The position numbers and the translations under genes are program-made. Source: Serratia odorifera (GTDB lineage Bacteria > Pseudomonadota > Gammaproteobacteria > Enterobacterales > Enterobacteriaceae). From it: a stretch of DNA of 32,000 nt. This document shows positions 1,503 through 25,895 of this stretch, in pieces. Location of the stretch: assembly GCF_900635445.1 (NCBI RefSeq), contig NZ_LR134117.1, positions 2,443,311 through 2,475,310 on the forward strand. The letters are read 5' to 3'. Below the pieces are notes generated by a model, which was not told where the DNA came from, searched no databases, and was given only the letters and a program-made list of their open reading frames with translations. Within the stretch, counting starts at the first letter, position 1, and each line of letters begins with the position of its first letter.

Positions 1503-1646
1503 ATGAGTAATAAACCGATCGCTACCGGCGAACGGCAGGGTAATTCACTGCCGCAAAGGCGGTTTGTCGGGTTGTTCTCGCGGGATGTAGCTGCGATAGT
1601 GGCTGACTATATCGTCAGTACGGGAAGTGAGGCGAGTAATGTCTGA
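1503..1646 (+). CDS. Small ORF (47 aa) overlapping the speA start, YqgB-like
   Basis: ATG 1503 to TGA 1644-1646, below the track cutoff: [47 protein letters not shown]. It overlaps the speA ATG (1639) by 8 nt. The M..KP.A..ERQ and GL.S...AAIV motifs match my recollection of E. coli YqgB, which also sits directly upstream of speA. Confidence 0.45.
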
Positions 1647-3615
1647 TGATCAGTTGAAACACCGTCCGCCGGTTGCGGACGAATCTATTTCTTTGCGCTC
1701 CATGCAGGAGGTTGCCATGAATGATCGTAATGCCAGCAAGATGCTGCGTACTTATAATGTCGCCTACTGGGGCAACAACTATTATGACGTCAACGAGCTT
1801 GGCCACATCAGCGTGTGCCCCGATCCGGACGTCCCGCAGGCGCGCGTCGATCTTGCCGAACTGGTGAAGGAGCGGCAGAAAGAGGGACAGCGCCTGCCGG
1901 CACTGTTCTGCTTCCCACAGATTTTGCAGCACCGTCTGCGTTCGATTAACGCGGCGTTCAAGCGCGCGCGTGAATCGTTCGGCTACGAAGGTGGCTACTT
2001 CCTGGTTTATCCGATCAAGGTAAACCAACACCGCCGGGTGATTGAATCGCTGGTCAACTCCGGCGAGCCGCTGGGGCTGGAGGCCGGTTCCAAAGCCGAG
2101 CTGATGGCGGTTCTGGCGCACGCGGGCATGACTCGCTCGGTGATTGTCTGTAACGGTTATAAAGACCGTGAATATATTCGTCTGGCGCTGATCGGTGAAA
2201 AGCTGGGGCACAAAGTGTACCTGGTGATTGAGAAGATGTCGGAAATCAACCTGGTGCTGGAAGAGGCCGAGCGGCTGAACGTAGTACCGCGCCTGGGCGT
2301 GCGTGCGCGTCTGGCGTCGCAGGGCTCAGGTAAATGGCAGTCCAGCGGTGGCGAAAAGTCCAAATTCGGTTTGGCGGCGGTGCAGGTATTGAAACTGGTA
2401 GAAACGCTGCGTGAAGCGGGTCGCCTCGACAGCCTGCAATTGCTGCACTTCCACCTGGGGTCGCAATTGGCCAACATTCGCGATATCGCTACCGGCGTGC
2501 GTGAATCAGCGCGTTTCTACGTTGAACTGCACAAACTGGGCGTCAACATCCAGTGCTTCGACGTGGGCGGCGGTCTGGGGGTCGATTATGAAGGCACGCG
2601 CTCCCAGTCTGACTGTTCGGTGAACTACGGTCTGAACGAATACGCCAACAACGTCATCTGGGGCATCGGCGACGCCTGTAACGAGCACGGCTTGCCACAC
2701 CCGACGGTGATCACCGAATCCGGCCGTGCGGTCACCGCCCACCATACGGTGCTGGTGTCCAACGTGATCGGCGTGGAACGTAACGAATTCGGCGAACCTC
2801 ATCCGCCGGCAGAAGACGCGCCGCGTGCGCTGGAAAGCATGTGGGAAACCTGGCTGGAAATGAACGAGCCGGAAAACCGCCGTTCGCTGCGTGAATGGCT
2901 GCACGACAGCCAGATGGATCTGCACGATGTGCATACCCAGTACGCGCATGGCATGCTGGACCTGACCAAGCGTGCCTGGGCGGAACAGCTGTACCTGAAC
3001 ATCTGCAACAAGATCCAGCAGCAGCTCGATCCGAGCAACCGTGCGCACCGTCCGATCATCGACGAACTGCAAGAACGTATGGCGGACAAGTTTTACGTCA
3101 ACTTTTCGCTGTTCCAGTCGATGCCCGACGCCTGGGGGATCGATCAGCTGTTCCCGGTATTGCCGCTGGAAGGGCTGGACAAGCCGCCGGAAGGCCGTGC
3201 AGTGCTGCTGGATATTACCTGCGATTCCGACGGCACCATCGATCATTACGTCGACGGTGATGGCGTAGCGACCACCATGCCGATGCCGCCGTACGATCCG
3301 GAAAACCCGCCGGTGCTGGGCTTCTTTATGGTTGGCGCCTATCAGGAAATCCTGGGTAATATGCATAACCTGTTTGGTGATACCGCATCGGTTGACGTAT
3401 ATGTCTTCCCGGACGGCACCATTGAAACCGAGTTGTCTGACGAAGGCGATACGGTGGCGGATATGCTGGAATATGTACAGCTGGATCCCATCGCGCTGCT
3501 GGCCAAGTTCCGCGATCAGGTCAAGGAAACCGACCTGGACGACGGGCTGCAAGCGCAGTTCCTGGAAGAGTTCGAGGCCGGGCTGTACGGTTATACCTAT
3601 CTTGAAGATGAATAA
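1639..3615 (+). CDS. speA: Biosynthetic arginine decarboxylase
   Basis: Track ORF 1627..3615. From ATG 1639 it reads MSDDQ...[33 protein letters not shown]...[15 protein letters not shown], collinear with E. coli SpeA end to end. Confidence 0.95.
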
Positions 3616-3631
3616 GTAGAGCCGAACTGAA

Positions 3632-3665
3632 AGGCCGGGCATCTCCCTGATGTCCGGCCTTTTTA
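3632..3665 (+). terminator. Rho-independent terminator after speA
   Basis: aggccgggcat-ctccctg-atgtccggcct forms an 11-bp stem with one G-U pair, followed by ttttt. Confidence 0.7.
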
Positions 3666-3837
3666 ATGGTTTCCCCCCCCGCAATCCCCTTCGATATTTC
3701 TTTGCCCCATATCAGTTATCACAAATTTGTTAACTCTCCGTGAGGATTCGGACAGGGTTTTCTCTGTAGGTTGTCACTATTGGTTTGATCGGTTTTGGGG
3801 GAAATGCTGATCAACAGACGGCGGTTTATTCTATAAC

Positions 3838-4035
3838 CTAGTCGTCACTTTTTAATTTTAACACATGCTTTTTCCACCATGTGCTGGTGAGAAATAAGTA
3901 CGCTAAAGCAATCAGCAGAGCGTAGCTTATTGCTTTGAGAACGATAGGGCCGGTAATGGTTATTCCTTGGAAGAGGTAAGCAATCAAATAGCAGATAAAA
4001 ATAGTGCAAAAATTTTGAGAGTTTTTTTTATGCAC
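3838..4035 (-). CDS. Small 2-TM membrane protein (65 aa), possible second or orphan immunity protein
   Basis: Track ORF with GTG start preceded by ggggatat. It has two hydrophobic segments (FCTIFICYLIAYLF... and ISYALLIALAYLFLTS) and is AT-rich. It is the last gene of the minus-strand cassette. Confidence 0.45.
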   Translation of the reverse strand: MHKKNSQNFCTIFICYLIAYLFQGITITGPIVLKAISYALLIALAYLFLTSTWWKKHVLKLKSDD

Positions 4036-4048
4036 ATATCCCCATCAA

Positions 4049-4067
4049 GGCCGGGAAGTGCCCGGCC
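4049..4067 (-). other. GC-rich intra-cassette hairpin between the microcin-like gene and the 65-aa ORF
   Basis: ggccggg-aagtg-cccggcc is a perfect 7-bp stem in otherwise AT-rich DNA. No U-tract follows on the minus strand, so it is more likely an attenuator or mRNA-stabilising hairpin than a full terminator. Confidence 0.3.
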
Positions 4068-4076
4068 ATATCGACA

Positions 4077-4421
4077 TTACCAATGACACTGACCATTAAC
4101 ACTGTTGCGACTAGAATTTCCACCTAATGGGTCATTGCTATTGTTATTATCTCCACAGTTACGAGAGTATGAGCGAATACCTTCGATAGCAGCACCACGA
4201 ATAGAGCCATATGCGAAACCTGAAATAGCACCCGCTGCAATCCCTGCTGGCCCACCAGGCAATCCTCTTGGTCCTCCTACTATTGCACCTGCATATCCCC
4301 CTGCCAAAGCTCCTCTTTTGGCATCGCTGGCAACCTGTGAAGCACATCCTTGGCCCTCATAGCCAGAATCTGCGTTTCCACCAGAAATAGTGAGTATTTC
4401 CTTTGTTGTTAGTTCTCTCAT
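4077..4421 (-). CDS. Class II microcin / colicin V-like bacteriocin precursor (114 aa) with double-glycine leader
   Basis: MRELTTKEILTISGG|NADSGYEGQGCAS... The leader fits M-R-x-L-x3-E-[LI]-x2-[IV]-S-G-G (colicin V: MRTLTLNELDSVSGG). The core is Gly/Ala-rich with GxxxG-type repeats, an Asn/Ser/Gly tail and 3 Cys. RBS AGGA lies ~10 nt upstream. Confidence 0.7.
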   Translation of the reverse strand: MRELTTKEILTISGGNADSGYEGQGCASQVASDAKRGALAGGYAGAIVGGPRGLPGGPAGIAAGAISGFAYGSIRGAAIEGIRSYSRNCGDNNNSNDPLGGNSSRNSVNGQCHW

Positions 4422-4426
4422 AACGC

Positions 4427-4645
4427 TTATTTCCTTTCAAAGCGTTGATAAAGATAATCCACTGTGATCATAGATACAGGGATATAGATGAGAATGATTC
4501 CTAAGGTAATATCATTCAGTGAGTCAATTTGAGAACAAAGATAGCCTAGAGGAATACTTAATAGGAACGTCATAACCTCTAGTGCTATATAAAGTTTTTT
4601 ATTTTTAATTGTCTGTTTGTGACGTGTTGGCATGATATTAAACAT
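4427..4645 (-). CDS. Candidate microcin immunity protein (72 aa, 2 TM)
   Basis: MFNIMPTRHKQTIKNKKLYIALEVMTFLLSIPLGYL...ITLGIILIYIPVSMITVDYLYQRFERK has two hydrophobic helices. Its stop lies 5 nt before the microcin ATG, inside that gene's RBS. Size and topology fit class II microcin immunity proteins. The start could instead be the ATG at 4633. Confidence 0.55.
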   Translation of the reverse strand: MFNIMPTRHKQTIKNKKLYIALEVMTFLLSIPLGYLCSQIDSLNDITLGIILIYIPVSMITVDYLYQRFERK

Positions 4646-5039
4646 CTGGTTTATTTTTCTCTATTTTATCTTTATATGTTAGATCTAGCTGTTATGCGTG
4701 CTGTTAACTTGTGTTATTTAACTAAATTTTAAATGTGATTTTCTTTCCGTGCTTAATGTCTTCGCACTGTGAGTTTGTTTCATTAATAGTATGACGGAAA
4801 TTAACTTATATATTTTCACCTTCAGATAAAGGGGATTGAAATCACAAAACTAATCATCGGGAGCTTAATGGATGTCAGCTCCAAAGCTCGTGAAGGCGGC
4901 CACGTTCACATGCCTGAAGGATGCAGGGTCTATACTGGATGACGACGAGCAGTCGGGATGATGATGCGCGCTCTTGAAGCGCGAACCAAATACGGCGATA
5001 ATCTGCGCCATCAGCAGTGCCAAAAGATTTTTGAATAGA

Positions 5040-5082
5040 TCCCTTTCTCGTCGGGCTAACGACGCGGGAGGGATTTTTTTTT
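5040..5082 (+). terminator. Strong plus-strand rho-independent terminator just upstream of speB
   Basis: tccctttctcgtcg-ggctaa-cgacgcgggaggga pairs at 13 of 14 positions (2 G-U), followed by T9 (5074-5082). Confidence 0.55.
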
Positions 5083-5137
5083 GCTCCGGCCTGTGCGCTT
5101 TCACAACAGGCAAATCGTTGAACTATGAGGGTTTAAT

Positions 5138-6059
5138 ATGAGTACTCTAGGCCATCAGCCCGATAATTCTTTAGTGTCCAACGCCTTTGGTTTCCTGCGC
5201 TTTCCGCTGAATTTCATGCCTTACGACAGCGATGCAGAGTGGGTAATCACCGGCATTCCTTTCGATATGGCAACCTCCGGCCGTGCCGGCGGCCGTCATG
5301 GCCCGGCGGCGATTCGTCAGGTATCGACCAATCTGGCCTGGGAAGGTCACCGCTGGCCGTGGAGTTTTGACCTGCGCGATCGGCTGAACGTTGTCGATTG
5401 TGGTGACATCGTGTTCAATTTTGGCGATGCGCAGGACATGAGCGACAAATTGCAGGCGCACGCAGAAAAACTGCTGAAGGCCGGCAAACGCATGCTGTCC
5501 TTCGGCGGTGACCACTTCGTGACGCTGCCGCTGCTGCGCGCGCACGCCAAGCATTTCGGCAAAATGGCGCTGGTGCATTTCGATGCGCACACTGACACTT
5601 ACGCCAACGGCAGCCAATATGACCACGGCACCATGTTCTTCCATGCGCCAAACGAAGGTCTGATCGACCCGCACCATTCGGTGCAGATCGGTATTCGTAC
5701 CGAGTTCGATCACGACAACGGTTTTACCGTGCTGGATGCGGCGCAGGTGAACGATCGCGGCGTGGACGATCTGCTGACCCAGATCAAACAGATCGTCGGC
5801 GACATGCCGGTATATCTGACCTTTGACATCGACTGTCTGGATCCGGCATTTGCTCCGGGCACCGGTACGCCGGTTATCGGCGGCCTGACCTCCGATCGCG
5901 CGCTGAAGCTGGTGCGTGGCATGCAGTCGCTGAACATTGTCCGGCATGGACGTGGTAGAAGTGGCGCCGGCTTACGATCAGTCTGAAATCACTGCGCTGG
6001 CGGCGGCGACGCTGGGGCTGGAGATGCTGTACCTGCAGGCGGCCAAAAAGCAGCCGTAA
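5138..6059 (+). pseudogene. speB: Agmatinase, interrupted by a 1-nt insertion (possibly an assembly error)
   Basis: [19 protein letters not shown]...[39 protein letters not shown] then goes out of frame at gtCCggc (5941-5942). The +1 frame restores [38 protein letters not shown] (TAA 6057-6059). Length minus 1 nt is 307 codons. Confidence 0.9.
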
Positions 6060-14190: not shown

Positions 14191-14293
14191 TTCCCCGCTG
14201 CCTGCCGCGTAACGGCCAGACGGCAACGCGCCTCCTCGGTTAAGCCACGAGGAAGGCGCCGCGGGCAGGCCTGGGAAAAACCGGGAGCGTTTC

Positions 14294-15551
14294 ATGACTA
14301 CGCAACATATTGACACCCGCGCTGGTCGGGTGGGGGAAACCGTTGTCGAAAATCAGCCGCAGCGGGTGCGCTGGTCGGTGCCGATGGCGCTGTTTGCCTG
14401 CGTATTGCTGGCGTTTTTTGACAAGATCAGCATTGCGGCGCTGTTTTCCGACAGCGCATTCCAGCAGGCGTTGGGCATCAGTTTTGATCCGACGCGGCTT
14501 GGCTTGCTGATGAGCGCCTTCCTGTTTTCCTACGGATTTTCGTCGATGCTGTTAAGCGGCATCGGCGATCGGCTGAACCCGACCAAGGTGCTGGTCGGCA
14601 TGATGATCGTCTGGGGGCGTGCTGATGGTGCTGATGGGGCTGACGCGCTCTTACCACACCATGATGACGCTGCGCATCCTGCTTGGCATTGCCGAAGGGC
14701 CGTTGCTGCCGATGGCCTACGCCATCATTCGCCAGGCTTTTCCCCAGCGTTTGCAGGCGCGTGCCACCATGCTGTGGCTGCTGGGGACGCCGCTCGGTGC
14801 GGCGCTCGGCTTCCCGGTCACGTTGTTTATTCTCAACACCTTCAACTGGCAGGCCACCTTCTTCTTTATGGCGTTTCTGACGCTGCCGGTGATGCTGCTG
14901 GTGCTGTTCGGTCTGCGTCATCTGCAGGTACAACGGGAGGAAAAAACGCAGCAAACCCTGCCGGCAGAACGCCGACAGCATCGTCGCGCACTGCTGCGTA
15001 ATCCGCACTTCTGGATGATCTGCCTGTTCAATATCGCCTTCCTCACCTACCTGTGGGGGATGAACGGCTGGCTGCCGAGTTATCTGATCAAGGGTAAAGG
15101 CATCCATCTGGAACACGCCGGCTATCTGTCTTCGCTGCCGTTTATCGCCATGCTGCTGGGGGAAGTGCTGGGGGCGTGGCTGTCGGACAAGCTGGATCGT
15201 CGCGCGCTGGCCTGCTTTTTCTCGCTGGGTGGCGCAGGGCTGGGGTTGGCGGCGGTGCTGCATTTGCATGGTACCTACAGCGTGATTGCCGCCATGGCGT
15301 TCAGCACCTTCATGTGGGGCGCCGGCGCGCCGAACATTTTCGCCCTGCTGGCGAAGGCGACCAGCAGTAAGGTGAGCGCCACCGCCGGCGGCATTTTCAA
15401 TGGATTGGGCAATTTTGCCGGCGCGTTGGCGCCGGTGCTGATGGGGGCGTTGATCGCCGCTACCAGCAACATGGATAACGGCCTGTTGTTCCTGGTGGTG
15501 ATGGCCTTTGTCGGCTGCATCATTCTGCTGCCGTTACTGAAGAAATACTGA
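14294..15551 (+). pseudogene. MFS transporter of the catabolic cluster, apparent 1-nt insertion
   Basis: Track ORFs 14294..15001 and 14619..15551 join at the G5 run 14613-14617 (MMIVWG|VLMVLMGLTRS). Length minus 1 nt is 419 codons. Confidence 0.8.
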
Positions 15552-18538: not shown

Positions 18539-20011
18539 ATGGAAACGTTAAAGATCTTCCTGGCCGGGCGCTGGCGTGAAGGGCGCGGCGAACTGATGCA
18601 ATCGCGATTCCCGGCCGACGGCTCGCTGAATGCCGAACTGCATGCGGCCAACCTCGACGACGTCAACGATGCGGTTGCGGCAGCGGAACGCGCCTGGCGT
18701 GCGCCTGAATGGCGGCAGCAGCTACCCGCACCAGCGGGCGGCGATCCTGCAGCGCGTCAGCGAGCTGATCGTCGAGCAGTTGGAGCCGTTGGCGCAGTTG
18801 CAAACCCGCGACAACGGCAAACCGCTGGCAGAAACCCGTGGACTGGTGGCCAGCGCGGCCGCCACCGCGCGTTATTTTGCCGCCGCCTGCGAAGTGCTGG
18901 AGGGTGAACTGCCCACCCAGCGCAGCCACGATGCGATGACGCTCAGCCAGTACCAGCCGCTGGGGGTGATCGCCGCCATTACGCCGTGGAATTCACCGAT
19001 TGCCAGCGAAATGCAGAAAGTGGCTCCGGCACTGGCGGCGGGCAATGCGGTGATCCTCAAACCCGCTGAAGCGACGCCGCTGATGGCGCTCAAACTGGCG
19101 GAACTGTTTGAACAGGCCGGATTGCCGGCCGGTTTACTCCAGCGTGTTGCCGGGCAAGGGCTCGGTGATTGGCGAAGCGCTGGCGCGTCACCCTTTGGTG
19201 AAAAAAATTTCGTTTACCGGCGGTACCAGCACCGGCCGCCATTTGGCGCACGTAGCGGCAGAAAAGCTGATCCCGACCTCGCTGGAGCTGGGGGGCAAGT
19301 CGCCGACCATGGTATTGGCAGACGCGGATCTGGAGCAGGCGGCGCGTGGCATCTGCTACGGCATTTTCAGTTCCGCCGGGCAGGCGTGCATCGCCGGTTC
19401 GCGGCTGTTCGTGCACCGTTCGCTGTACCAGCCGTTGCTGGCGCGGCTGTGCGAACTGGCGAGTGGGCTGCGCGTCGGCAACCCGTTACAACCGGGGGTA
19501 CACCTTGGCCCGCTGATCAATGCCCGCCATCGGCAAAGCGTGGCCGATTACGTCGCGCTGGCGCAGCAGGAAGGCGGGCGAGTGCTGATCGGCGGCGAGA
19601 TACCGGCGGATCCGCAACTGGCGAACGGCAGCTACTACCTGCCAACAATTATTGAGGGGCTGAATAACGAGGCCCGGGTGTGTCAGGAAGAAATTTTTGG
19701 TCCGGTGCTGGTGGCGATGCCGTTCGACGATGAAGCACAGCTGATTGAAATGGCCAACGATTCGGTTTACGGGCTGGCGGCGGGCATCTGGAGCCGTGAT
19801 TTTCCGCGGGCGATGGCGCTGGGCGTCGCAGTTGGAAACCGGCACCGTGTGGATCAACACCTATAAGACGTTCTCGATCTCGACGCCGTTCGGCGGCTTT
19901 AAACACAGCGGCCTGGGGCGTGAAAAAGGGCTGCACGGCATCAAGGCGTATATGCAGCAAAAGAGCGTGTATCTGGCATTAAACCACCAGATCAACCGCT
20001 GGAGCGACTAA
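18539..20011 (+). pseudogene. NAD(P)-dependent aldehyde dehydrogenase, three apparent 1-nt insertions
   Basis: ELGGKSP and FSSAGQACIAGSR (catalytic Cys) motifs. The frame steps +1 near 18712-18716, at ctCCagc (19139-19140) and at ctGGGcg (19821-23), linking track ORFs 18539.., 18630.., 19108.. and 19745..20011. Length minus 3 nt is 490 codons. Confidence 0.85.
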
Positions 20012-22736: not shown

Positions 22737-24742
22737 ATGTCCTCTCGTAAAGAGCTTGCCAACGCCATCCCGCGCACTCCAGCATGGACGCCGTGCAAAA
22801 AGCAAAATCCGGCCACCCGGGTGCCCCTATGGGAATGGCGGATATCGCCGAAGTCCCTGTGGCGTGACTACCTCAACCACAACCCGACCAACCCGCACTG
22901 GGCTGACCGCGACCGTTTCGTGCTGTCCAACGGCCATGGCTCCATGTTGATTTACAGCCTGCTGCACCTCACCGGCTATGACCTGCCGATGAGCGAGCTG
23001 GAAAACTTCCGCCAACTGCACTCCAAAACCCCGGGTCACCCTGAATACGGCTATACCCCTGGCGTCGAAACCACCACCGGCCCGCTCGGCCAGGGCATTG
23101 CCAACGCCGTCCGGCTTCGCCATCGCCGAACGCACCCTGGCGGCGCAGTTCAACCCGCCCGGGCCACGATATCGTTGACCACCACACCTACGCCTTCATG
23201 GGCGACGGCTGCATGATGGAAGGCATCTCCCACGAAGTCTGTTCGCTGGCCGGCACCATGAAGCTCGGCAAGCTGACCGCTTTCTACGATGACAACGGCA
23301 TCTCCATCGACGGCCACGTCCGAGGGCTGGTTCACCGACGACACCGCCAAGCGCTTTGAAGCCTACGGCTGGCACGTGGTGCGCGGCGTCGACGGCCACG
23401 ACAGCGACGCCATCAAGGCGGCGATTGAAGAAGCCCGCCGCGTTAGCGACAAACCGTCGCTGCTGATGTGCAAAACCGTGATTGGCTTCGGTTCGCCGAA
23501 CAAGGCCGGCACCCACGATTCCCACGGCGCACCGCTGGGCGAGGCCGAAGTGGCCGCCACCCCGCGAACAGCTGGGCTGGAAATACGCCGCCTTTGAAAT
23601 CCCGCAGGACATCTACGCCCAGTGGGATGCGAAAGAAGCCGGTCAGGCGAAAGAAGCCGCCTGGAACGACAAGTTCGCCGCCTACGCCAAGGCCTTCCCG
23701 GAACTGGCTGCGGAGTTCAAAACGCCGCATGAACGGCGAACTGCCGGCCAACTGGCAGGCAGAAGCGAAGAAAGTGGTTGAGCAGCTGCAGGCCAACCCG
23801 GCCAACATCGCCAGCCGCAAGGCGTCGCAGAACGCGCTGGAAGCGTTCGGCAAACTGCTGCCGGAGTTCCTCGGCGGCTCCGCCGACCTGGCGCCAAGCA
23901 ACCTGACCCTGTGGTCCGGCTCCAAATCGCTGGGCGATGACCTGGCCGGCAACTACATCCACTACGGCGTGCGCGAGTTCGGCATGACCGCCATCACCAA
24001 CGGCATCGCGCTACACGGCGGTTTCCTGCCGTACTCGGCGACCTTCCTGATGTTCGTGGAATACGCCCGTAACGCGGTGCGCATGGCGGCGCTGATGAAA
24101 ATCCGCAACGTGTTCGTCTACACCCACGACTCCATCGGTCTGGGAGAAGACGGCCCGACTCACCAGCCGGTGGAGCAGTTGGCCAGCCTGCGGGTGACCC
24201 CGAACATGAGCACCTGGCGTCCGTGTGACCAGGTGGAATCGGCGATTGCCTGGCAGTAACGGCATCGAGCGCCACGACGGCCCGACCACGCTGATTTTCT
24301 CACGCCAGAACCTGGCGCAGCAGCCACGTGACGCCCGAGCAGTTGGCCAACGTGTACCGCGGTGCCTACGTGCTGAAAGACTGTGACGGCACGCCGGAGC
24401 TGATTTTGATTGCCACCGGTTCGGAAGTGGAGCTGGCGGTGGGTGCGTATGAGCAGCTGACGGGCGAAGGGCGCAAGGTGCGGGTGGTATCGATGCCGTC
24501 CACCGACGCGTTCGACAAACAGGATGCGGCGTACCGCGAATCGGTGCTGCCGTCCGGCGGTCGCCGCGCGTGTGGCCATCGAAGCGGGCATTGCCGATTA
24601 CTGGTACAAATACGTCGGGCTGAACGGCGCGGTGGTGGGCATGACCAGCTTCGGCGAATCGGCACCGGCCGAGCAGCTGTTCAAGACGTTCGGTTTCACC
24701 GTCGACAACGTGGTGGCGAAAGGCCAGGGCGTGTTGAAGTAA
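22737..24742 (+). pseudogene. tktA: Transketolase, eleven apparent 1-nt insertions
   Basis: The repaired product [11 protein letters not shown]|RAL|[25 protein letters not shown]|[10 protein letters not shown]...[17 protein letters not shown] is collinear with E. coli TktA. Extra bases lie in runs 22769-71, 22779-80, 22855-57, 23111-12, 23154-56, 23320-21, 23560-63, 23719-22, 24258-59, 24334-36 and 24554-57. The 2006 nt minus 11 gives 665 codons. Confidence 0.9.
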
Positions 24743-24781
24743 CCGCCAGGCGGGCGAGCAGGCTCGCCCCGCGTGATGGAA

Positions 24782-24808
24782 AACCCGGCTACGTGCCGGG
24801 TTTTTTTT
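24782..24808 (+). terminator. Rho-independent terminator after tktA (overlaps the dmlA stop)
   Basis: aacccggc-tacgt-gccgggtt is a perfect 8-bp stem followed by a T-run ending at 24808. On the reverse strand, ttttcc follows the hairpin, so it may act in both directions. Confidence 0.7.
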
Positions 24809-25895
24809 ATTGCAGTAAATCGGCGATCGCCGCGCCGACCTGCTGGGTCGAGGCATCGCCCTTGCATATCCGGCGTGCGCGGCCCGCTGGCAATGGTGCG
24901 CTCAATGGCGGCAAGGATATCGTCGTGCGCCTGACGGTAGCGACGATCGCCATTGCCGAGAAAGTCGAGCATCATCGCACCGGCCCCAAATCATGGCGAT
25001 CGGATTGGCAATGTTCTGGCCATAAATATCTGGCGCGGAGCCGTGCACCGGCTCGAACAGCGACGGGAAGTCGCGCTGCGGGTTGAGGGTTGGCGGATGG
25101 CGCAATACCGATAGTACCGGTACAGGCCGGGCCGAGATCCGACAGAATATCGCCGAACAGGTTGGAGGCGACGACCACGTCGAAACGCTCCGGGTTCAGC
25201 ACGAAGCGGGCGCAGAGGATGTCGATATGCTGCCTTGTCCCAGCGGATATCAGGGTAATGCTGCGCCATGGCCGCGACGCGTTCGTCCCAGTAGGGCATG
25301 CTGATGGCCATGCCGTTGGATTTGGTGGCGGCGGTAAGGGATTTGCGCGGCCGCTGCTGCGCCAGTTCAAAGGCGTATTGTAGAATGCGATCCACCCCCT
25401 GACGGGTAAACACCGATTCCTGCACCACCATCTCACGTTCGGTGCCTTCGAACATGCGCCCGCCGAGCGACGAGTACTCGCCTTCGGTGTTTTCCCGTAC
25501 CACGTAAAAGTCAATGTCACCGGGCTTTTTGTTGGCCAGCGGGCAGGCGACGCCGGGGAACAGGCGTACCGGGCGCAGGTTGACGTATTGATCGAAGTCG
25601 CGGCGAAACTTCAGCAGCGAGCCCCACAGCGACACGTGATCGGGCACTTTGTCCGGCCAGCCGACGGCGCCGAAGTAAATGGCGTCAAAGCCCTGTAATC
25701 GTTCGAACCAGTCATCCGGCAGCATCTGACCATGTTGCAGATAATAATCGCAGCTGGCCCAGTCAAAGGTGACAAACTCCAGCGCAAGATCCCATTTTGG
25801 CTGCCGCCGCCTGCATGACGCGAAGGCCTTCCGGTAATACTTCCTGGCCGATGCCGTCGCCCCGGGATCGCCGCGATTTTGTAGGTTTTGTTCAT
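24807..25895 (-). pseudogene. dmlA: D-malate/tartrate dehydrogenase (decarboxylating), six apparent 1-nt insertions
   Basis: The repaired product MNKTYKIAAIPGDGIGQEVLPEGLRVMQ...YFGAVGWPDKVPDHVSLWGSLLKFRRDFDQYVNLRPVRLFPG...[39 protein letters not shown]... is collinear with E. coli DmlA. Extra bases lie in plus-strand runs 25860-63, 25795-98, 25233-34, 25087-89, 24984-87 and 24857-59. Confidence 0.85.

Follow-up and report, generated by a model that had tools for sequence, protein, structure and literature searches.

The 32,000-nt stretch of the Serratia odorifera chromosome studied here (contig NZ_LR134117.1, assembly GCF_900635445.1; hereafter the window) likely carries a horizontally acquired class IIa microcin cassette of two, perhaps three, genes between speA and speB. 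Judged from its sequence, the central gene pair very probably encodes a secreted antibacterial peptide of class IIa, distantly related to microcins PDI and S (MccPDI and MccS), and the smaller of the two products, of 72 aa, is very probably the predicted self-protection protein of that peptide. The original prediction, made by reading the DNA without database searches, had placed open reading frames (ORFs) of 114 and 72 aa here, and both were confirmed in position, with the following parts.

4077-4421, minus strand: pre-microcin gene, 114 aa, from the ORF list and reading of the sequence
4377-4421, minus strand: leader, aa 1-15, with predicted cleavage after G14-G15
4080-4376, minus strand: mature peptide, 99 aa, predicted from leader cleavage
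4155-4346, minus strand: core (putative toxic) domain, aa 26-89, defined by the C26/C89 bracket, GxxxG runs and a GLPGGP turn
4080-4154, minus strand: Asn/Ser/Gly-rich tail, aa 90-114, ending LGGNSSRNSVNGQCHW, a putative uptake (receptor-recognition) module
4427-4645, minus strand: imm72, candidate immunity gene, 72 aa, with a basic N-terminus and two predicted transmembrane helices
4436-4431, minus strand: Shine-Dalgarno sequence AAGGAA of the microcin gene, read from the sequence, within the last imm72 codons

The 114-aa precursor begins MRELTTKEILTISGG, which matches exactly the pattern M...Rx[IL]x9G[GAS] published for the double-glycine signal of class II microcins, a signal of 15-19 residues (PMC12219008), and it is the sole ORF in the window to fit this pattern, even in a relaxed form. 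The 15-residue leader proposed from the sequence therefore agrees fully with the published signal, and its GG pair is invariant in the relatives, both in the close family and in a 17-sequence alignment. The mature peptide would comprise 99 aa (9.63 kDa, isoelectric point 7.9) with 22 Gly and 15 Ala residues. An N-segment of 10 residues separates the GG site from C26, and between G37 and G76 the core that follows carries GxxxG motifs in register, ten in all, as two runs joined by the GLPGGP turn, so that the glycine-zipper-like repeats first noted are borne out. Where the original prediction counted two cysteines, the mature peptide has three (C26, C89 and C112), all of them invariant in the close family, with C89 and C112 invariant in all 17 aligned sequences, MccPDI included. 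The C-terminus, ...NSVNGQCHW, does not have the Gly/Ser-rich siderophore-attachment tail of class IIb microcins, and Pfam scans of the neighbouring genes in the window found no modification genes. An AlphaFold model of the peptide places helices at residues 26-52 and 58-88, with predicted local distance difference test (pLDDT) values of about 50-60 there.

By leader, size, lack of a class IIb tail and an adjoining putative immunity gene, the sequence is that of a class IIa microcin, and the class IIa-like call made earlier from the small Gly/Ala-rich core and the missing Ser-rich tail holds; an exporter adjoining the microcin gene, also characteristic of the class, is not found in the 32-kb window. 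The stop codon of imm72 (TAA, 4429-4427) is followed by a 5-nt gap, GCGTT, and then by the microcin ATG at 4421, with a spacer of 10 nt between the AGGA core of the Shine-Dalgarno sequence and that ATG. The two genes are thus expected to be translated in close succession, given the short gap and the position of the Shine-Dalgarno sequence inside the 3' end of imm72, much as was proposed when the 72-aa ORF was described as ending 5 nt upstream with its stop inside the microcin ribosome-binding site.

The comparison with known microcins that had been called for returned matches by BLASTP to MccPDI (32% over 87 aa, E 9e-10), to an MccS variant (32.5% over 120 columns, E 1e-9) and to SM064 of Serratia marcescens (39% over 70 aa, E 9e-11). 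SM064 is antibacterial in experiments, inhibiting both the E. coli strain that secreted it and 9 of 24 strains of S. marcescens (PMC13101503 File S2). The hesitant earlier suggestion of a likeness to MccS and MccPDI is therefore real but remote, at 32% identity and E of about 1e-9. The 17-sequence alignment shows a common plan: a leader and an N(A/D)xSxYEG segment come first, then a first Cys, a Gly-rich hydrophobic domain that includes GGPxG, an invariant Cys (C89, matching C90 of McpM, the MccPDI peptide), an Asn/Gly/Ser linker and an invariant tail Cys (C112, matching C118 of McpM). With MccPDI and MccS in particular, class IIa microcins of E. coli, the window peptide shares the double-glycine leader and, after it, an N(A/D)(N/S)xx(Y/F)EG segment, the Gly-rich hydrophobic domain with GGPxG and its closing Cys, and the Asn/Gly/Ser-rich linker with a short tail whose Cys lies two residues from the C-terminus; as in those systems, a gene for a 71-72-aa (here putative) immunity protein with two transmembrane segments adjoins the microcin gene.

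The window core is 22-23% and the tail 32-36% identical to those of MccPDI and MccS, and the window peptide has three cysteines against their four. MccPDI carries a second leader with cleavage at G35/A36 (PMC5311971), whereas the window peptide has neither this second leader nor the cleavage segment, having no equivalent of residues 19-36. No CPBP protease gene (mcpA) lies anywhere in the window, and no mcpD/mcpB exporter genes adjoin the cassette, which is chromosomal, whereas MccPDI and MccS are carried on a conjugative plasmid. The two cysteines that bracket the hydrophobic domain of MccPDI (C57 and C90 of McpM) are essential (PMC5311971); C89 of the window peptide aligns with C90, while C26 stands at the start of the core and is not column-aligned with C57. 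The window peptide lacks a second leader, differs in its core and comes with an unrelated putative immunity protein and without mcpA; on the alignment it is a remote relative that lies outside the MccPDI/MccS family in the narrow sense.

SM064 comes from the same genus and shares the C-terminal module ...GGALGGNxNxNSVNGQC[RH]W, with 12 of the last 16 residues identical (75%), and the window cassette, like SM064, lies away from an exporter locus, none being present in the 32-kb window. However, SM064 (clade X) has a different core (20% identity) and N-segment, so that only the uptake-type tail is common to both, and the SM064 precursor has four cysteines as listed, one of them before the GG site, against three in the window peptide, all in the mature part. 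The opposite combination is seen in protein P0005, which has a core (aa 26-89) 64% identical to that of the window and a tail only 24% identical, of MccPDI type (...CSGGVGGTCSR), while P0013 and P0014, with MccPDI-like cores, are 9-12% identical in the core and 75-88% identical over the last 16 residues. Over all, 12 of the 16 sequences aligned with the window peptide share 69-94% of its last 16 residues, and SM064, P0013 and P0014, whose cores are unrelated, are among these 12. As aligned, the family is a mosaic of exchangeable core and tail parts, and in class II microcins generally the N-terminal part is toxic and the C-terminal part serves uptake (PMC12219008). Colicin V (MccV), the prototype exported by a C39-peptidase ABC exporter (PCAT), an adaptor and TolC, has a double-glycine leader, 15 residues long, that fits the same pattern, and an adjoining small immunity gene, but there is no core similarity and its uptake module is different, depending on CirA/TonB (PMC12219008).

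The product of imm72 was originally read as an immunity protein with two transmembrane helices, and this is supported. Its N-terminus is basic, two of its segments are hydrophobic, and an AlphaFold model built with 19 homologues places helices at residues 16-38 and 45-71 (pLDDT 72). An imm72-family gene stands beside every peptide with a core 50-72% identical to that of the window (L003, L011, L017 and L021), and this pairing holds despite a different tail (L017) or a reversed gene order. The Duffyella peptide, with a core of 39% identity, is accompanied by a small membrane protein unrelated to imm72 (hhalign probability 0.1%). The immunity type tracks the Gly-zipper core and not the tail. A relationship to McpI, the immunity protein of the MccPDI system, was considered for imm72 and rejected (hhalign probability 0.4%), the MccPDI core being 23% identical.

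The imm72 family is also kept without its microcin. Clustering at 90% identity gives 28 groups for the immunity protein and 4 for the microcin; in loci L013 and L014 an imm72 homologue stands alone at the speB/speA site, beside an inserted msrA-thioredoxin-msrB block, and in L015 an imm72 homologue and an orf65 homologue are found with no trace of a microcin gene. These orphan copies are under purifying selection, with ratios of nonsynonymous to synonymous substitution (dN/dS) of 0.09-0.15. Such retention is as expected of a bacteriocin system and offers evolutionary, sequence-derived evidence for protection, which joins the co-variation with core type in favour of the immunity role.

The same speB/speA site is occupied in every Serratia locus recovered, with variable content, and it is a recurrent insertion spot. 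In strains of S. proteamaculans type, the block of msrA, a thioredoxin-like gene and msrB lies with the orphan immunity gene at 5225-8220 of L013 and 1601-4596 of L014. In L015 (8001-8460) the imm72 and orf65 homologues are separated by some 40 bp that contain no microcin gene, and this imm72 homologue is identical, but for 10 nt, to its counterpart in the microcin-bearing L009, which is itself without orf65; the L015/L009 locus is a mosaic of alternative deletions.

An exporter of the expected class is found directly beside the homologues in other hosts, in operons of the usual microcin layout, as the earlier reading of a C39-peptidase-type system would have it. On plasmid pGABEKP28_1 of Pantoea piersonii (L011), a 73-aa imm72 homologue is followed by a 112-aa peptide (WP_269950534.1, 57% identical to the window peptide), an HlyD adaptor and a peptidase-domain ABC exporter. 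The gene order is the same on a metagenomic contig (L021, 59% identity), and plasmid pEM01 of Duffyella gerundensis (L012; WP_071852566.1, 43% identity) has an L011-like order with a different small ORF. In L017, the locus of P0005, the peptide gene comes first and is followed by the genes for an imm72 homologue, the adaptor and a Peptidase_C39 ABC exporter. The Erwiniaceae operon homologues (Pantoea, L021 and Duffyella), all annotated as hypothetical, are homologous to the window peptide from end to end and have the same three cysteines and the same tail, and in the Pantoea and L021 loci an imm72-family gene lies immediately upstream of the microcin gene. Unlike the Serratia cassette, which has none of these, they keep the genes for the HlyD adaptor, the C39 PCAT and a ClpP-like protease. 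The gene for this ClpP-like protease, of the serine type, comes after the PCAT gene, at 11880-12539 in L011, at 11849-12487 in L012 and at about 9982-10638 in L021; by analogy with mcpA, the extra protease gene of MccPDI, its product might act in maturation.

For the window strain, export by a PCAT encoded elsewhere in the host genome is plausible by analogy, because active microcins of S. marcescens such as SM064 are encoded away from the locus of the PCAT and the MFP (membrane fusion protein), and because a PCAT is present in all but 0.3% of the microcin-bearing S. marcescens genomes (PMC13101503). A further cassette without an exporter is seen in L022 (6479-7557), where a microcin with an SM064-like core, the N-segment NADFGYEGRG and the tail NSVNGQCRW is flanked on both sides by paralogous membrane ORFs of 75 and 76 aa, the whole having an ABC permease gene on one side and an unannotated 280-aa ORF on the other.

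Public databases list the exact window peptide under WP_071586656.1 / PNK90790.1, with the title "hypothetical protein [Serratia odorifera]", and the 72-aa protein under PNK90789.1. The microcin cluster at 90% identity contains 16 variants labelled S. proteamaculans, S. odorifera, S. inhibens and S. plymuthica, one UniRef entry of which is automatically named "Bacteriocin". The distribution is narrow: close relatives form only four clusters across 5.8 billion proteins, a profile search of 1.84 billion representatives gave 22 proteins at E <= 1e-3, and no DNA match to the intergenic insert was found in 5,426 E. coli genomes. Among S. proteamaculans, S. inhibens, S. liquefaciens and the window strain, the microcin gene has a dN/dS of 0.10-0.19 at a dS of about 1.2, and imm72 has 0.12-0.18 for the same pairs; both genes are therefore protein-coding and under constraint.

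Taken with what is established for related microcins, these features suggest the following mode of action. imm72 and the microcin gene would be co-transcribed from the AT-rich region at 4646-4860 and translated one closely after the other. The 15-residue leader of the precursor would be recognised by a PCAT acting with an HlyD-type adaptor and TolC, all encoded elsewhere, and cleavage after G14-G15 would release the 99-aa, 9.6-kDa peptide. At the target cell, the tail ...LGGxSxxNSVNGQC[HR]W would mediate outer-membrane recognition and uptake. OmpF is a lead for the receptor, by analogy, and not a finding; it serves the multi-Cys microcins MccPDI, EN82 and EN112, of which the last two are reported to depend on OmpF and DsbAB (PMC12219008). 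The core from C26 to C89 would form a helical hairpin from a pair of long glycine zippers, with disulfides made in the periplasm probably stapling or multimerising it, and would insert into and permeabilise the inner membrane, an idea carried over from MccPDI, for which membrane permeabilisation by multimers has been proposed (PMC5311971). The 72-aa two-helix protein of the inner membrane would neutralise the core and so protect the producer. For the window strain we infer export, a receptor, pore formation and protection; the family is otherwise wired to C39-peptidase exporters, and two of its branches are experimentally antibacterial.

Several observations weigh against an active microcin cassette. 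There is no gene for a PCAT, an adaptor or TolC in the 32-kb window, which has no ORF of at least 700 aa, while a search with the Pantoea PCAT gave no Serratia-named protein among the 120 matches listed of 5512 (E <= 1e-100), which, names there being sparse, says little about Serratia either way. A promoter scan of 4646-4860 found no convincing sigma-70 promoter for the cassette. The AlphaFold model of the peptide is of low confidence (pLDDT 50), and the odd number of cysteines leaves several disulfide patterns possible. Pfam and NCBIfam searches with the three small ORFs gave sub-threshold matches only, the peptide scoring below gathering for Bacteriocin_IIc (PF10439, 17.3 bits vs 27.1), for MccV (PF17508, 11.2 vs 27 bits, E 0.56 and in the leader region only) and for the glycine-zipper families PF13441 (16.7 vs 28.9 bits) and PF13436 (16.7 vs 27 bits); a PDB sequence search returned chance-level matches only. 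In addition, the cassette is dispensable: in the L005 lineage imm72 and the microcin gene are both frameshifted, by deletions of 1 nt and 13 nt respectively, and the GG site carries the change G14A; P0011 is a truncated microcin remnant; and the microcin gene is lost in L013 and L015. The decayed lineage (L005 2778-3332, also L006-L008) is about 98% identical to the window, and its two genes appear to be decaying together.

These losses bear on the main rival explanation, in which the host has no cognate exporter and the cassette is an immunity island or relic, kept for the protection given by imm72 (and perhaps orf65) while the microcin gene is silent or being lost. The window without an exporter would fit this, as would the inactivation of both genes in the L005 lineage, the P0011 remnant, the excess of immunity over microcin clusters and the immunity-only loci that remain under purifying selection at the same site. 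However, purifying selection acts on the microcin gene as strongly as on imm72, which is hard to explain if the gene is unused, and active microcins of S. marcescens, SM064 among them, likewise lie away from the PCAT/MFP locus in a species where nearly all carriers have a PCAT (PMC13101503). The selection on the microcin gene in particular argues against an unused toxin gene, and we consider this explanation unlikely.

A lower probability still is given to the idea that the double-glycine peptide is exported mainly for a purpose other than killing, such as self-assembly in a matrix or biofilm, or signalling, with the membrane protein as a partner in handling or processing. Acinetobacter baumannii microcins have been reported to self-assemble and promote biofilm (PMC13188072), a long glycine-zipper core would favour self-association, and only 17 of 40 tested predicted S. 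marcescens microcins were confirmed active in the assays used (PMC13101503). Yet the nearest validated relatives, MccPDI, MccS and SM064, are antibacterial, and a membrane protein that is kept without the peptide, and whose type tracks the core type, fits immunity to a toxin better than processing, making such a role improbable here. A non-secreted membrane toxin with its antidote, serving as an addiction module that stabilises mobile DNA, would suit a glycine-zipper membrane peptide encoded on a plasmid-like contig next to an inovirus block, but is very improbable, as it would make incidental a conserved leader with an invariant GG, leave a conserved hydrophilic tail with no role inside the cell, and disregard the direct coupling of four independent homologues to C39-peptidase exporters.

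The microcin cassette therefore remains the preferred reading, and the relatives on mobile DNA bear on how it may have spread. P0004, encoded in L003, L004 and L018-L020 from three JGI metagenomes, is about 63% identical to the window peptide overall and 71% identical over residues 26-114, and in these loci the immunity and microcin genes form a pair with overlapping ATGA. The cassette stands directly after gene IV (the pIV secretin) of an inovirus block (1458-8351 in L003; also in L004 and L018-L020), in which PHROGs identified a replication initiator, an attachment protein, a minor coat protein, Zot/pI and the pIV secretin. The L003 contig is plasmid-like, with a Rep3 replicon, iterons (14211-14791) and ParDE. 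A search for att-type direct repeats around the L003 inovirus block found only the plasmid iterons and the phage ends are not defined, and neither tblastn nor a contig scan found a relative in viral contigs or phage genomes. Carriage of the cassette by filamentous phage is accordingly put forward as a lead only. Tentatively, and with more doubt than confidence, the system may be viewed as an exporter-less mobile module that passes from replicon to replicon, uses resident PCATs and is maybe delivered by phage, combining a new disulfide-bracketed double glycine-zipper core with a new immunity family, the core recombining with at least two tails (NSVNGQCHW and MccPDI type).

No description of the peptide or of its immunity family was found in the papers and supplements searched, PMC13101503 and PMC9746304 among them; the tail motif was met in no paper by full-text search, and a search for microcins with Serratia species other than S. 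marcescens gave nothing relevant among the papers listed. The claim that the microcin is undescribed holds within the literature searched, the database entry reading only as a hypothetical protein. Class II microcins are, however, reported to be ubiquitous in large surveys (PMC9746304, PMC12219008, PMC13101503), including in 96% of S. marcescens genomes (PMC13101503), and since they are known to be abundant in Enterobacterales, one more predicted member is an expected finding, of a kind that is now common and of a system type that is not new. If the peptide is active, the class IIa microcins would gain a new pairing of toxic core with immunity protein. Its carriers are Serratia associated with plants and food (proteamaculans, plymuthica, inhibens, liquefaciens and odorifera-labelled strains), a group for which we found no microcin report. 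With the same core joined to two tails and the same tail to several cores, natural variants would separate the killing part from the part that selects the receptor, and the immunity-only strains at the same site would be ready-made controls with predicted resistance. The case also illustrates that microcin genes can be found apart from their exporters and can decay into immunity islands.

The possible third gene, orf65, and the other features of the locus are as follows.

4049-4067, minus strand: hairpin GGCCGGG-CACTT-CCCGGCC, 10 nt past the microcin stop, a weak terminator candidate
3838-4035, minus strand: orf65, 65 aa, GTG start, with a GGGGA Shine-Dalgarno sequence at 4043-4039 and two hydrophobic segments
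4646-4860, minus strand: AT-rich region (30-37% GC) upstream of imm72, the expected, predicted site of the cassette promoter
3616-5137, no strand: speA-speB intergenic region, 1522 bp, carrying the insert, from the GC profile and flanking genes
1627-3615: speA, to which the cassette is antisense
5138-5986: speB, to which the cassette is antisense

orf65 is judged to be a real gene: the window, L001 (85% identity) and the L005 lineage all have an undamaged copy, and L015 has an intact, GTG-initiated 63-aa homologue (54% identity) next to its orphan immunity gene. It is absent from L002, L009, L003 and L011 (S. inhibens, S. liquefaciens and plasmid/phage copies), and has no match in Pfam, NCBIfam or the plasmid collection. 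An origin of orf65 as an imm72 paralogue was rejected by hhalign, which found no similarity; the gene may have an accessory role or be a second (orphan) immunity gene.

The GC content is 30-44% (up to 50%) across the speA-speB insert against 55-62% in the flanks, the exception within the insert being the Gly/Ala-rich microcin ORF at about 50%. A 50-nt segment with the hairpin has a fold energy of -19.1 kcal/mol; the hairpin has no T-run and was not called by a terminator scan, and different hairpins occupy the same post-microcin position in L002, L009 and L003. The upstream region at 4646-4860 is partly conserved among Serratia loci, a Fur box upstream of imm72 scored no better than in shuffled sequence, and an Rfam scan of the whole window gave no match. 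The genes neighbouring the cassette were, in Pfam scans, metabolic genes only.

In the window, speB is split by one extra C (5935-5945) into ORFs of 282 and 40 aa, and genes for an MFS transporter, an aldehyde dehydrogenase and a transketolase appear to be fragmented as well (14294-15551, 18630-19655 and 22737-25086). L024 (GCA_003576035.1), of the same lineage, differs from the window over 3.3 kb by only two 1-nt insertions in short base runs, one at 5935-5945 in speB and one at about 4831. These split genes probably reflect indel errors of assembly and not pseudogenes, and for speB a real pseudogene is unlikely, as the assembly of the same lineage differs there by a single 1-nt insertion. 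Further out on the speA side, past metK, a small toxin gene of the hok/gef family is found at 7232-7384 in L009 and at 12696-12848 in L015.

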